Shown piece after piece: positions 53,901 through 59,900 of a stretch of 64,000 nucleotides of DNA. Each line of letters starts with the position of its first letter. Position 1 is the first letter of the stretch. The position numbers are program-made. The stretch is from Escherichia coli (GTDB lineage: Bacteria; Pseudomonadota; Gammaproteobacteria; Enterobacterales; Enterobacteriaceae): NCBI RefSeq assembly GCF_030013205.1, contig NZ_CP122648.1. The stretch is one strand, 5' to 3'.

Positions 53901-56900
53901 ACTCCTGGTGCGGACATTAACTTTATAATCAGTTTGCCAAAGGTAATTAACAGGACAGGGCTTATAATAATAGTTAGCTGGCTGTGTATTAATTTGATGT
54001 AATGCATGATGCAGATGCTGAGAAAGCATCTGCATCTCTCGGTGGTGTTATTTGACCAGCTCAGGTGTTACCTGACTCACCGCATTGGTGTAGTAAGGCG
54101 CGCCCCAGCCTGGTTCCGGCCAGAATGCACCATAGCCGTAATCCCACAGGTTATAGGTGGTATTAACCATTTCTCTCAAATGCCACACCTGAATGCCCTG
54201 CATATTCACTTCCAGGAAGTTATACGGGACTTTATTGATAAAGCCAGGTTGTTCACCCTGAATGGTACCGAGGATGGTAACAAAGTGATTACGATAGTTC
54301 ACTGGATCAAGGAAGCCGCTTTGTCTGGCGAGCAGTCGGCCCTGATAGTTGGCTTCAATATCAGGCTTCGCATAGCTATCCAACGGTAATACAGCGATTT
54401 CTAACAACGTATCCGTTTTGCCATTGATAACGTTGATAACCTTCCCACCAAAGCGCGCTTGTTGACCAACATATAACCCCGGCTGGTTATGAACAGCAAC
54501 AAAACTTTTTTGAATATCAGGTTGGTTATTGCCTTTGATATTTTGCGGAATTGAACTACATGCGGCAAGCAAAAATGAAAGGCTGAGGATGAGTGCACCT
54601 TTTGTCATGTTCATGTTACTATCCTTATCAACAAATATTAAAACCATAATAGATATTTCTTTATAGTTTTCATCTGATTCTGAGGCGATATGCCTGATAG
54701 TAACGTAAACCTGTCTGATGTTTATATCCCTTCTGTTTAGTTTAATTCTGTTAATTTTGGGGCGTGACATGAGTATCCATCGCCCCATAAAATAGCCTTT
54801 TTTTAAAGGTACATAAAATCTATTTTTATTCAATGATTATAAAGTGCTAATGTTCATATTATGGGATTATATTCTGGTAATGATTTGATAAGCGAATTCT
54901 TTTGCCAGATGGTGTTTCTATTTCCACCCCATAATTTATAGTTTTTTCATCAGGTAGCGATCTCTTTAAATAAGGTGCGTATGACATTTTTTTTGGGTTA
55001 AGCGTCTCGTATTGAAATACTTCGAATTGATATTCAGACATTTCTGCCCATGTTTGAATTTTATTGTATCGGGGTAGTGTCGTAAAGGCTTTAACTTGCT
55101 TATAACATTGTTTTTTGAATTCTTGCTGATATTTTAATATGTCATTGTATGAAATATTGGTTATCCTGGCCTCTAAGAATTTAATTATTGTCGAAGCAAT
55201 TTCCGCTTTTGCTCGTAAAAAGTTGTCATTAATGGTTAATAATGTTGAAAATAAACCTTCGATTTGTTTGTCAAGATATTGTTCGTCTTTATATAATTTT
55301 GGGGTAGGGTGTTCTTTATGTGAAAAAATAGTGTCACCTAAATTTGCGTCAGTGAAATTTATATTAAGTAGATCTTCGAAATAAAACCTTGACAAGGTTA
55401 GAACGAACCCGGACAGGTTCTGTCCTGTCATATTGAAATCAATAAAGTTGGTTCCGGCAAAGACTTTCATCCTGTTTTTATTTTCACTGTGTTCAATATA
55501 TAACTTCGTCATTTTTTGATACAGGCTTTGAATATCTTTTATATTAGTCGGTAAGTCAGCTCGTTGTTCAGCAATAAAATTAGTATCTGAAAATATGGTT
55601 TGGACACTGAATGTTATGGGTATTCCCTCTTCTACGCTAATTTTAGTTATGATTGCCTTGTCGGGTTTAGGATTAGCGACAACAATGATTCGACATTCAG
55701 CACTTTTGTTCTTTTCGTATCTAATGTTATTAATTTGATTAAGTAGTCCCTGTGCCTGCCGCGTAAGTGGTGTCGAACTTATCGATTCAATGTTAGTAAT
55801 AAGACTTACAAGTTGAGCCACAACTTTTGAGTAGTCTGCATTTGTATATGTGGTGTTCGTGTGGCACGCATTAATTTGTTGGAGTTGTTGTTGCGCTAAA
55901 TCAAATTGTTCAGCGTTATATCCTTCTTCAGACAATGAAAAATTAATGGGTTGCTGTTCTTCCTGATTATCACAAGGCCACATCGGTGTGTCTGGTGTTT
56001 TAACATTGTCGGTATCTGTTGTGCGGTTATAAATATCGCCGTGATATGTATTTATCATACCTGGGGTAAAGTCAATTGACATAACATTCCTTATTGTTCA
56101 TCTATTTCGCTAAATTTTTGTAAATCGGAGAATTAGAGCAGGAATGGATTTTCTTCTACGCGGAAATAAACACAATGCGTCATATCTTCCTGATATAATT
56201 ATCTTTAACTTCCCTTTCATTTCCACCCGGTAATATTTGTGTATAAAAAAAGGGCAGTGATAGTATCGTAAAGGAAAACGTTAACAACTATCAAAAAGCG
56301 CTCATTTTAAAAAGTTATGATGTTCACCGATAGTGTGTGAAGTGATATTTTTGTGATGTTTTAGATGTGTAATAATGAACCAGGTTAAAGTGTATTTAAA
56401 AATGTGTTGTATTGGCGACTGAAATCTGCCCTTTAAAAGGGGGGATAGCACTGAAACAAAGAGACATTGCTTCTCCGATAAAATGTCAGAGAAGCATGAT
56501 TGCGTGGTGATTGTCGATTGATGACTTACTGACGGATCCGTCATCATTCTCAAAGCATTAGTTAAGTTATTTGTGATTTTTAAGGATTATCCTATCTATG
56601 ATTTTCTACTCAGAAGGATAAGGCACTCACAATGCTCCTTATAGTTTACTGCTGGCATCTATTTAAAATAGCATTTGAGTCAAATAGCCCATCAAGATAG
56701 CCATACCTAATATAACCGTCAGGAATGCAACTATCATCGGTATTCTGAACATTGATTTAAGTAATATCACTTCCGTCAGACTTGCGCCGGCACTGCCGAT
56801 GATTAATGCCATTAATGCCCCCAGACCCATGCCTTTCGTCATCAGAACTGATGCCAGAGGGATAACCGCCTCTGCCCGGATATATAGCGGAATACCGACA

Positions 56901-59900
56901 ACGGCGCTCAATGGGATGGCGAAGGGATTATCTGCCCCTGCATGAGCGGCAATCCACTCTGAGGGAATAAAGCCATAAATAAAAGAGCCTATTAATACCC
57001 CTAACAAAAGATATGGCAGTACATCTTTAAACTGTTGCAACGCATCTTTGGTGGCTAGTTTTATGGGATTAATACTTACCACAGCTTTGGTACTGCAACA
57101 GTTTACTACAGGTTTCTCAATGGCTTTAGCCGCTGGACTACAGCAACTCACTTTTATTGGCGTATATGTCGTCCCCGGCGAAGTTTTGGCTGGAGCACAA
57201 CAATTTGCTGATGAGCTTTTACTGGCAATGATATGACGTTCAAATCCCAGGGAATCCAGGATAATACTGGCAAGTACGGAGACGCCGGCGGCGATAATCG
57301 CGTACAACAAGGTAACTTTCCAGCCAAAGGTCACCCACATTAACCCGACGATAATGGGATTAAGTAATGGGGAAACAAATAAAAAAGTGAGGGTCGGACC
57401 GAACCCGGCTTTCGCTGACAACAATCCACGTAACATTGGGATTGTCGAGCAACTACAGAACGGGGTAACGGCTCCCAACAGAGCCGCCAGGAGATAGCCT
57501 CTCCCTTTTCTGGCCCCCATCATCTGCCGGATTTTATGGTCTGGCACCTTTTGTCTTATCAGGCTCACACCGGCACTAATCACTATAAACAGCAAAGAAA
57601 GCTCAACGGCGAGAAACACAAACATCTCTGCGGCATCTTGCAGCATCGCAAGCCAACTACTCATACGTAACCTCATTGAATAAATCTATATTTCCAGAAT
57701 AATCGAAATGAAATTCAGATCAAGATATTTCTGGTATTATCGAAATATCAACCAGACAAAGGGGGTGTCATATGCAGTTGGAAGAAGTTGCTAAAGCGCT
57801 GAAAGAGCTAGGTCACCCGAGCCGTTTGTTCATATTCAAACACCTGGTCAAAGCGGGGGAACAAGGTTTGCCCGTCGGTGAGTTGCAAAAGCAGCTTGGG
57901 ATACCCGGCTCTACACTCAGTCACCATATTTCAGCACTGGTATCGGTAGGGCTGGTCAAACAAAACCGTGAGAGTCGAACGCTGATGTGTGTTTCGCAAT
58001 ACGCAATGCTGGAAGCGATAATTGAATTCTTACGCGAGGAGTGCTGCGTAAATAGCAAAATTGCCTGATGCGCTACGCGCTACAGATTTCATGCCATGCA
58101 CGGTTTTGTAGGTCGGATAAGACGCGTTAGCGTCGCATCCGACATAAACAAAGCGCACTTTACCAACTATGGGCAGTGGATATCGCCGCTTTATTTCAAG
58201 CGTTTACCCGCTTCATCAACCACTTTCTCGCCATCTTCCTTGGTGAACGCGCCTTGTTGCGCATCTGGCAGAATTTCCAGCACGACTTCTGAAGGGCGGC
58301 ACAGGCGAGTTCCCAACGGCGTCACCACAATCGGGCGATTAATCAGAATCGGGTGCTGAAGCATAAAGTCGATTAACCGATCGTCAGTAAATTTATCTTC
58401 TGCAAGGCCCAGTTCCTCATACGGCTCGACGTTTTTACGCAGCAGCGCGCGTACGGAAATCCCCATATCGGCAATGAGTTTGACCAGTTCATCACGCGTC
58501 GGTGGGGTTTCCAGATAATAGACGATGGTCGGTTCTGTACCGCTGTTGCGGATCATCTCCAGCGTATTACGCGACGTACCGCAGGCCGGGTTGTGATAAA
58601 TGGTAATGTTGCTCATATCAATATCTCATTACAAAGTGAAAGAGAGACGTAGCGCCAGCGCAGCCAGCGTCACAAACAGCACCGGCAGGGTCATGATAAT
58701 CCCTGTACGGAAGTAATATCCCCAGCTGATAGTTATATTCTTCTGCGAAAGTACGTGCAGCCATAGTAGCGTTGCCAGGCTACCAATCGGGGTAATTTTC
58801 GGCCCCAAATCGCAGCCAATTACGTTGGCATAAACCATCGCTTCTTTGATAACGCCAGATGCCGTGCTGCCATCAATGGACAACGCGCCAACCAGTACCG
58901 TCGGCATATTGTTCATAATAGAAGAGAGGAAGGCGGTGAGGAATCCGGTGCCGAGCGTCGCGGCCCACAGGCCATTATCCGCCAGCACGTTGAGTACGCC
59001 AGAAAGATATTCCGTTAGTCCGGCATTGCGCAGGCCATAAACCACCAGATACATGCCGAGCGAGAAGATGACAATCTGCCAGGGCGCACCGCGCAGGACT
59101 TTACCCGTATTAATTGCATGACCGCGTTTAGCGACGGCAAATAATATCAGCGCGCCCACTGCCGCAATGGCGCTGACCGGAATGCCGAGCGGTTCCAGGA
59201 CGAAAAATCCCACCAGCAGAAACAGTAAAACAACCCAGCCAGTTTTGAAGGTGGCAGGATCTTTAATCGCTTCTGCGGGAGATTTCAGCAGCGCCATATC
59301 GTAGTTCTGCGGAATATCTTTGCGGAAATAGAGATGCAACATCACCAGCGTGGCAACAATCGCGGCGATATCCACCGGCACCATCACCGAGGCATATTCG
59401 CGAAAGCCGAGGCCAAAGAAATCTGCGGAAACGATATTCACCAGGTTGGAGACAATAAGCGGCAGGCTGGCGGTATCGGCAATGAACCCGGCCGCCATCA
59501 CGAACGCAAGCGTCGTGCCTTTACTGAACCCTAAAGCCAGCAGCATGGCGATGACAATCGGTGTCAAAATAAGCGCCGCGCCATCATTGGCAAACAGAGC
59601 TGCAACGGCAGCACCGAGCAGGACAATCCAGGTAAACAGCAAGCGACCGCGTCCATTGCCCCAGCGTGAGACGTGCAGCGCCGCCCATTCAAAAAAGCCG
59701 GACTCATCCAGCAGCAGGCTGATGATAATGACGGCAATAAACGCCGCCGTCGCGTTCCAGACGATATTCCACACCACCGGAATATCACCCGGATGTACCA
59801 CGCCCGTAACTAACGCCAGTACTGCGCCAAGCGTTGCACTCCAGCCGATGCCTAAACCTTTCGGCTGCCAGATAACCAATACGATGGTCAGGACAAAGAT

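Follow-up and report, generated by a model that had tools for sequence, protein, structure and literature searches.

Here, we analysed a 64,000-nucleotide stretch of the Escherichia coli contig NZ_CP122648.1 (the window), in which two divergent genes, one for an ArsP-family permease and one for an ArsR/SmtB repressor resembling SpArsR of Shewanella putrefaciens 200, lie next to the arsenic-resistance genes. The gene order is chuA-chuS-dctR-slp-yhiS-[permease, regulator]-arsC-arsB-arsR-dinQ-gor, and the interval holding the pair is 100% identical to E. coli strain ETEC1748. An initial annotation of this DNA had described two extra genes between yhiS and arsC that are absent from K-12, and we found both open reading frames at the claimed positions, in a spacer of 2108 bp that measures 628 bp in K-12. 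The concern that the pair had simply been overlooked in K-12 can be set aside, as that strain retains only a remnant of the regulator 3' end. Of 5426 complete E. coli genomes, 2222 (~41%) carry both genes in full, and the pair was also found in E. fergusonii and Shigella; a literature search returned no paper describing this chromosomal pair. The true start of the permease is likely the second ATG, at 57664, giving a protein of 333 amino acids (aa), because RefSeq uses it for the identical gene, homologues begin there and a GAGG lies 7 nt upstream. All features are listed in Table 1.

Table 1. Features of the permease-regulator pair and its surroundings (window positions; permease residues in the 337-aa numbering used throughout)
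Feature	Position	Strand	Remarks
Permease gene	56663-57676	minus	longest open reading frame, 337 aa; between yhiS and arsC
Regulator gene	57772-58068	plus	open reading frame, 98 aa, SpArsR-type ArsR/SmtB repressor; divergent from permease
Permease motif TPFCSCST	residues 71-78		
Permease motif PLYIRAEA	residues 263-270		
Permease Cys-rich loop	residues ~148-207		
Operator O1 (predicted)	57725-57748		ATATTTCGATAATACCAGAAATAT on permease strand; perfect ATATTTC-N10-GAAATAT dyad, 23 nt upstream of regulator ATG
Operator O2 (predicted)	57688-57711		TCATTTCGATTATTCTGGAAATAT on permease strand; 2 mismatches to dyad; holds proposed permease -10
Proposed permease promoter	57696-57723	minus	-35 TTGATC (57723-57718), 16-nt spacer, -10 TATTCT (57701-57696) within O2
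Terminator-like hairpin	56468-56496	minus	11-bp stem and T-rich tail, ~170 nt past permease stop; consensus scan only
Region upstream of yhiS	56083-56422		no gene; 84% identity to K-12; outside the module
Segment missing from K-12, O157:H7 and a B2-like strain	56423-57998		permease gene, operators and first ~75% of regulator gene; pairwise alignments
RNA elements elsewhere in the window	60477-60560, 60711-60794, 50216-50247, 34579-34692, 8725-9756		

The profile search proposed in the initial annotation gave a clear family assignment for both proteins. The regulator belongs to Pfam HTH_20/HTH_5 and to NCBIfam NF033788 (59.8 bits, cut-off 55), which agrees with the ArsR/SmtB family and the length first described, although the protein does not end in EECC as had been stated: its tail reads REECCVNSKIA, with six residues after the Cys pair. 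Compared with SpArsR, it shows 57% identity and 75% similarity over 92 aa without a single gap (E=1e-40), and its C73, C91 and C92 align with SpArsR C83, C101 and C102, while the 10-residue N-terminal extension of SpArsR is missing. For this comparison, SpArsR and its native arsP promoter were recovered from the Sp-ars-gBlock in the supplement of PMC12124457, where three reading frames had to be stitched and two bases are missing in the text; the reconstructed protein reproduces the published Cys101/Cys102 numbering. According to the literature on SpArsR, the repressor uses Cys101 and Cys102 and responds to methylarsenite, not arsenite. Together with the arsP promoter, SpArsR was induced in E. 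coli by 0.1-1 uM monomethylarsenite (MMAs(III)), reached 9% of maximum at 50 uM As(III), and gave no response to dimethylarsenite (DMAs(III)) or pentavalent species (PMC12124457). From this pairwise comparison, with its full-length gapless similarity and matching cysteines, and from the operator and the gene arrangement, the regulator is likely an orthologue of SpArsR.

The AlphaFold2 model of the regulator is of high confidence (predicted local distance difference test, pLDDT, 94.3) and has the layout a1-a4/b1-b2/a5, with C73 placed on the wing strand beta2 and C91-C92 at the end of helix alpha5. Its best Foldseek match is 6j05 (template modelling score, TM, 0.88), the type 2 As(III) sensor AfArsR of Acidithiobacillus ferrooxidans, which is also the best match by sequence among solved structures (E=1e-9, 30% identity) and whose C95/C96 align with C91/C92. 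Both proteins thus carry a vicinal Cys pair at the alpha5 end, but the third ligand C102 exists only in AfArsR, as the tail CCVNSKIA contains no further Cys, and the extra invariant wing Cys exists only in the window regulator. An AfArsR-like protein in which the third ligand is absent is what has been described for SpArsR (PMC11868830). The C-x-C-x-x-C site of type 1 repressors such as those of R773 and K-12 was not found, as the first Cys of the 98-aa regulator is C73. In the same window, ELCVCDLC is present in the canonical ArsR (59973-60326), whose score on NF007528 is 228 bits. In some Vibrio and Desulfovibrio orthologues, an extra Cys follows the CC pair by 4-8 residues (CCVNEQCN, CCIDEC, CCFDQNPAC), roughly at the position of the third AfArsR ligand, and these proteins may be arsenite-responsive variants.

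The C-terminal Cys pair, which the initial annotation had singled out, is present but is not the full set, since C73, C91 and C92 are all invariant in 40 regulator orthologues. Because of this third invariant cysteine, we kept in play the idea that the module responds to inorganic As(III)/Sb(III) and pumps it out, using a three-coordinate site formed by C91, C92 and C73 of the partner subunit, and would serve as a second arsenite pump backing ArsB. Going by the ArsR/SmtB fold, C73 at the base of alpha5 could approach the Cys pair of the other subunit in an antiparallel alpha5 dimer; in addition, arsRBC is the immediate neighbour of the pair, and the extra Cys of some orthologues recalls AfArsR. 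We nevertheless regard inorganic arsenite or antimonite as an unlikely ligand: SpArsR has the same three cysteines yet gives only the above 9% of maximum with As(III), the ArsP of Campylobacter jejuni does not transport As(III), and arsenite is already dealt with in this strain by ArsR and ArsB. The cysteines could also form a disulfide or polysulfide bridge, and the regulator has a weak similarity to BigR (38.4 bits on NCBIfam NF040642; 3pqj, E=4e-7) and YgaV (3cuo, E=1.6e-7), which would fit a redox or sulfane-sulfur sensor of the BigR/SqrR/YgaV type paired with an exporter of a sulfur compound. This seems very improbable, as the BigR cut-off is 155 bits, the Cys positions are unlike those of BigR/SqrR, the likely orthologue SpArsR is induced by methylarsenite (MAs(III)), and no rhodanese, persulfide dioxygenase or sulfide:quinone reductase recurs among the neighbours at the 80 loci surveyed below.

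The regulator and permease genes are separated by a 95-bp intergenic region that contains two 24-bp dyads, the predicted operators O1 and O2. Is this arrangement peculiar to E. coli? We compared 44 regulator-permease intergenic regions, namely the window and 43 loci from Enterobacterales, Aeromonas, Vibrionaceae, Shewanella, Desulfovibrionaceae, Deferribacteraceae and alphaproteobacteria, and found 84 sites of the form ATATTTC-N10-GAAATAT, against 1.9 in shuffles. Every one of the 44 regions holds at least one copy and 34 hold at least two. The arsP promoter of S. putrefaciens has two such sites as well, one of which, GTAATTCGATAATACCAGAAATAT, matches E. coli O1 (ATATTTCGATAATACCAGAAATAT) at 22 of 24 positions. 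The position of O2, at about -35 relative to the permease start, is conserved in Enterobacterales and Aeromonas. In most of the 44 aligned regions, O1 is immediately followed by a TTGAC-like hexamer and O2 contains a TATnnT, and from these we infer the permease promoter listed in Table 1; alternative hexamers from a consensus scan were set aside in favour of the phylogenetically conserved ones. With its -10 inside O2 and its -35 next to O1, this promoter would be occluded by the bound repressor.

The permease matches Pfam ArsP_1 (PF03773) with 178.4 bits against a gathering score of 32.3 (E=2.4e-52), over profile positions 3-293 of 294. The motif TPFCSCSTIP and the Cys pairs of the loop (NCCAPAK, SCCSP, NCCS) that had been pointed out in the initial annotation are all present. 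Across 82 members of the permease clade, T71-P-F-C74-S-C76-S-T is invariant, and TPFCSCST and PLYIRAEA are both invariant or nearly so. The central loop of these proteins varies in length from 31 to 148 residues and is almost always Cys-rich, with a median of 7 Cys and up to 18 Cys and 9 CC pairs; CC pairs occur in 63 of the 82, and histidines are lacking. The two homologous four-helix repeats (4+4) typical of the ArsP family were recovered with hhalign, which aligned the N-terminal with the C-terminal half over 104 columns (E=1.1e-4). As this alignment sets C74 against R267 and C76 against E269, it suggests a thiol substrate site opposite a charged pair able to handle protons. A charge of +7 is found on the loop that follows the first helix, and the counterpart of this loop in repeat 2 is acidic. 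A cytoplasmic location of the Cys-rich loop is plausible, and we speculate that the positive-inside rule would place it there only if both motif-bearing segments were re-entrant. The AlphaFold2 model of the permease, built from 44 homologues, shows ~8 helical segments at low confidence (pLDDT 51.7, predicted TM score 0.38), and no chain in the PDB matched the permease by sequence.

The presence of TPFCSC in a permease of the ArsP family was thus correctly noted, but its use as a diagnostic motif for organoarsenical transport does not hold: CSC is the most conserved motif of the entire PF03773 family, including the SO_0444 Cu/Zn exporters and SaoE, and therefore the motif alone cannot assign an arsenical substrate. 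More specifically, a tPF directly upstream of C(S/T)C has been described for cluster 2 of ArsP proteins from ars operons (PMC4435449), and the tPF-CSC of the permease fits this pattern. The only PF03773 paralogue of K-12, YraQ, has its Cys motif at the same position but differs in its 24% identity, in a CTCC instead of CSC, and in the lack of a Cys-rich loop and an ArsR partner. Compared by family and motif, C. jejuni ArsP (TC 2.A.119.1.1) has in common with the permease the Pfam/TCDB family, a membrane C-S/T-C motif and an ArsR partner among ars genes. It is presumably 315 aa long and devoid of the Cys-rich central loop. The loop is likewise missing from a 36%-identical homologue within an arsD/arsA/arsB island of a Staphylococcus plasmid. 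According to a review (PMC6205960), MAs(III) and trivalent roxarsone are exported by C. jejuni ArsP, and As(III) is not.

Is the association with arsenic genes a common feature of this permease clade? In a context survey of 80 species-level loci, whose permeases are 45-98% identical, the divergent regulator was the sole strongly conserved neighbour (present at 48 of 79 loci, with a median spacing of 128 nt). Arsenic was the only coherent functional theme besides the regulator, with ars neighbours at 12 of the 80 loci. In Aeromonas piscicola, where the regulator is 87% identical, it is followed by arsR-arsD-arsA-acr3-arsC, divergent from the permease gene. In Deefgea, whose permeases are 63-65% identical to the window permease, the permease gene adjoins arsD, in the order arsR-arsD-permease-arsA-acr3 in a metagenome-assembled genome (L015) and arsR-arsD-permease in Deefgea sp. 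L019, where acr3 lies further downstream. The order in Endozoicomonas is acr3-arsD-arsA-permease, Buttiauxella combines the E. coli arrangement with arsH, and in Shewanella sp. KJ2020 both arsJ/GAPDH (glyceraldehyde-3-phosphate dehydrogenase) and arsB/arsC lie near the pair, the intergenic region being clearly homologous to that of S. putrefaciens 200.

A related copy is carried by ~730 enterobacterial plasmids, most of them conjugative, with 75-80% identity in the permease and 93% in the regulator. On these plasmids, of IncF, IncHI2 and other replicons, arsH-arsR is divergent from the permease gene (e.g. locus L004, 5761-8134) and IS26 often truncates arsH; poultry (chicken, turkey) and swine are the source of many of the sampled records. 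A 2026 survey reported that a plasmid gene labelled 'arsP', a label given without characterisation, co-occurs with blaCTX-M-55 in E. coli. An IncFIB plasmid of Citrobacter freundii (L086, 5230-7174) carries a 30%-identical PF03773 permease together with a sigma-70 factor and a small thioredoxin-family protein; this is a different subfamily with a different set of partners. Other variants of the locus were seen as well. In nine loci, mostly of Vibrio and one of Motiliproteus, a sigma-70 factor of the extracytoplasmic function (ECF) type, whose C-terminal tail is Cys-rich, is encoded no more than ~1 kb upstream of the permease; in one of these nine (L076), its gene (607-1194) closely follows the regulator gene in the same orientation. 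A metagenome-assembled genome of Pseudomonadales (L051) has two complete regulator-permease cassettes within 10 kb (1274-2716 and 8934-10343), and Enterovibrio coralii (L061, 8001-10174) has two tandem permease genes.

The family-wide CSC motif and the scarcity of ars neighbours would also suit a soft-metal (Zn, Cu, Cd, Hg) efflux cassette like that of SO_0444/Shew_3410, in which the Cys-rich loop and the CSC motif would bind cations. SO_0444 and Shew_3410 show fitness phenotypes on Zn/Cu, most species loci are not adjacent to ars genes, and the best NCBIfam similarity of the permease is to the SO_0444 Cu/Zn family (NF033936). The score on this family, however, is 107.7 bits against a cut-off of 300, and nine other clade members are equally distant (98-127 bits, all below 300); SaoE (NF040736) gives 84.1 bits against 325. 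While these proteins share the PF03773 family and the CSC motif, they are partnered by MerR/ZntR regulators, as are the Cu/Zn members, or by genes of the SAO locus, and not by an SpArsR-type repressor, which in the permease clade is the likely orthologue of a methylarsenite sensor. In addition, the regulator has neither a His/Asp/Glu site in alpha5 nor an N-terminal Cys site, the permease loop has no histidines, and ars genes are the only coherent recurring neighbours. Soft-metal efflux is, in our estimate, highly doubtful, and it is the identity of the regulator and the neighbours that speak against both this and the sulfur-related function considered above.

Taken together, we consider it probable that the pair is an arsR-arsP cassette of the S. 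putrefaciens type, i.e. an efflux system inducible by methylarsenite, a trivalent organoarsenical. The initial annotation had proposed a thiol-ligand module for the sensing and export of arsenicals, a proposal that gains support from the similarity to SpArsR, the shared cysteines and operator, and the relatives of the permease found within ars operons. In S. putrefaciens 200, the genes for SpArsR and ArsP (Sput200_1227/Sput200_1226) are likewise adjacent, the arsP promoter lies between them under control of the regulator, the regulator has the same three cysteines and ATATTTC-N10-GAAATAT is present in two copies. The two systems differ in the length of the intergenic region (222 bp vs 95 bp in E. 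coli) and in the length and sequence of the permease loop, the permease of the corresponding Shewanella locus (L065) being 51% identical to that of the window.

By analogy, the repressor, presumably as a dimer, would bind the two dyads of the intergenic region, with O2 over the permease -10 and O1 beside the -35, just upstream of the regulator gene, and would thereby shut off both genes. A trivalent organoarsenical, most likely MAs(III), would bind C91-C92, the equivalents of SpArsR C101-C102, whereupon the repressor would leave the DNA. The induced permease would then export the trivalent organoarsenical, probably as a proton antiporter, in which the membrane-embedded C74-S-C76 of repeat 1 would bind the substrate and the pseudo-symmetric R267/E269 of repeat 2 would couple transport to protons; the Cys-rich central loop may capture the substrate. 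For the E. coli pair, we infer the substrate, the inducer, the coupling mechanism and the role of the loop.

Several points weigh against an organoarsenical efflux cassette. No ars gene lies within ~8 kb of the permease in 68 of the 80 species loci, the CSC motif is common to Cu/Zn exporters, and the SO_0444 family is, even at 108 bits vs 300, the closest NCBIfam relative of the permease. The identity of 57% to SpArsR does not guarantee the same ligand selectivity, and the invariant C73 stands outside the published two-cysteine model. The permease model, at its low pLDDT, is too poor for judging the geometry of CSC and the R/E pair. Moreover, we found no experiment on any member of the permease clade, the one characterised permease being the distantly related C. 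jejuni ArsP.

How did the difference between the window and K-12 arise? The initial annotation had viewed the pair as an expansion of the ars locus, and here our results point the other way. Three pieces survive in their original order in the 628-bp spacer of K-12: the 340 bp nearest to yhiS, 61 nt that weakly match the middle of the permease gene, and the 3'-terminal ~70 nt of the regulator gene, after which comes the same repetitive extragenic palindromic (REP)-like element as in the window. The same deletion junctions are found in K-12 (phylogroup A; locus L002, 5340-5480), O157:H7 and a chuA-positive B2-like strain, and in the regulator remnant of the scar the CC codons have decayed to TAC TGT. 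On this evidence, the pair is ancestral and was lost in K-12, because three lineages share one scar that retains the regulator 3' end; this points to one old deletion allele segregating in E. coli. In one of the strains with this scar, FDAARGOS_1283 (locus L089, 3001-4460), the pair, arsB and arsR are all missing and only arsC is left between a yhiS remnant and dinQ; the ars locus as a whole appears to be a gene-loss hotspot.

Where the pair is present, both genes evolve under purifying selection. In a comparison of two E. coli alleles with ~6% DNA divergence, the permease had a ratio of nonsynonymous to synonymous substitution rates (dN/dS) of 0.064 and the regulator one of 0.020, at a dS of 0.17-0.22, one permease value (locus L090) being disregarded as a loop-indel artefact. 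In the same comparison, arsC gave a comparable dN/dS of 0.07. Thus, both genes are kept by selection, like arsC. Across permease, regulator and arsC (window 56663-58616 vs locus L091), the dS between alleles was ~0.13-0.22, which is well above the divergence typical of E. coli core genes and suggests old or recombined alleles.

More tentatively, these observations can be joined into one picture, to which, as a whole, we give a low chance: the two-cysteine model would be incomplete, with C73 completing an inter-subunit sulfur site or providing a redox input; the loop would act as a built-in ArsD-like chaperone that feeds the CSC site; and the two old E. coli alleles and the ~730 plasmids would reflect ongoing selection by organoarsenicals derived from the gut or from feed.

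K-12 is the standard host for arsenic-resistance genetics, and arsRBC has been taken as the chromosomal ars locus of the species. About two fifths of the complete E. coli genomes, plus E. fergusonii and Shigella, carry instead a five-gene ars locus with a probable methylarsenite sensor and pump. While this kind of system is itself already known, the pair, as a component of the E. coli ars locus, is common and ancestral, has gone unstudied and was lost in the model strain. If our interpretation is true, natural E. coli strains would differ in their tolerance to trivalent organoarsenicals originating from gut or soil methylators or from feed additives of the roxarsone type. Selection for antibiotic resistance could carry along the closely related arsH-arsR-arsP module, which sits on conjugative resistance plasmids. 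Biosensors for methylarsenite could also draw on the compact regulator and its conserved operator as a native E. coli part.

In the flanking sequence, the 580-bp gap between yhiS and the permease gene (56083-56662) holds no assignable gene, as first described: the identical RefSeq record has no annotated gene there, no Rfam match was obtained at a permissive threshold and there is no credible open reading frame. The only one of at least 50 aa, an 83-aa frame with a TTG start (56302-56553), was rejected as a gene, since it has no Pfam match and is truncated in K-12. The terminator-like hairpin within this gap is the probable end of the permease transcript. The stop codons of the regulator and arsC genes flank the REP-like palindrome GTAGGTCGGATAAGACGCGTTAGCGTCGCATCCGAC (58104-58153), which K-12 also conserves; a weak sub-threshold match to Rfam naRNA4 (58111-58149) falls within this palindrome. 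On the other side of the pair, yhiS (54859-56082, minus strand) is an intact 407-aa open reading frame with no Pfam or NCBIfam match; in K-12 it is disrupted by IS5, and in several other strains it is annotated as frameshifted. RNA elements that reach the gathering score in the window comprise two AgrB copies, the chuA/shuA 5' untranslated region thermoregulator, GadY and three rdlD copies, all of which are ordinary for this region.

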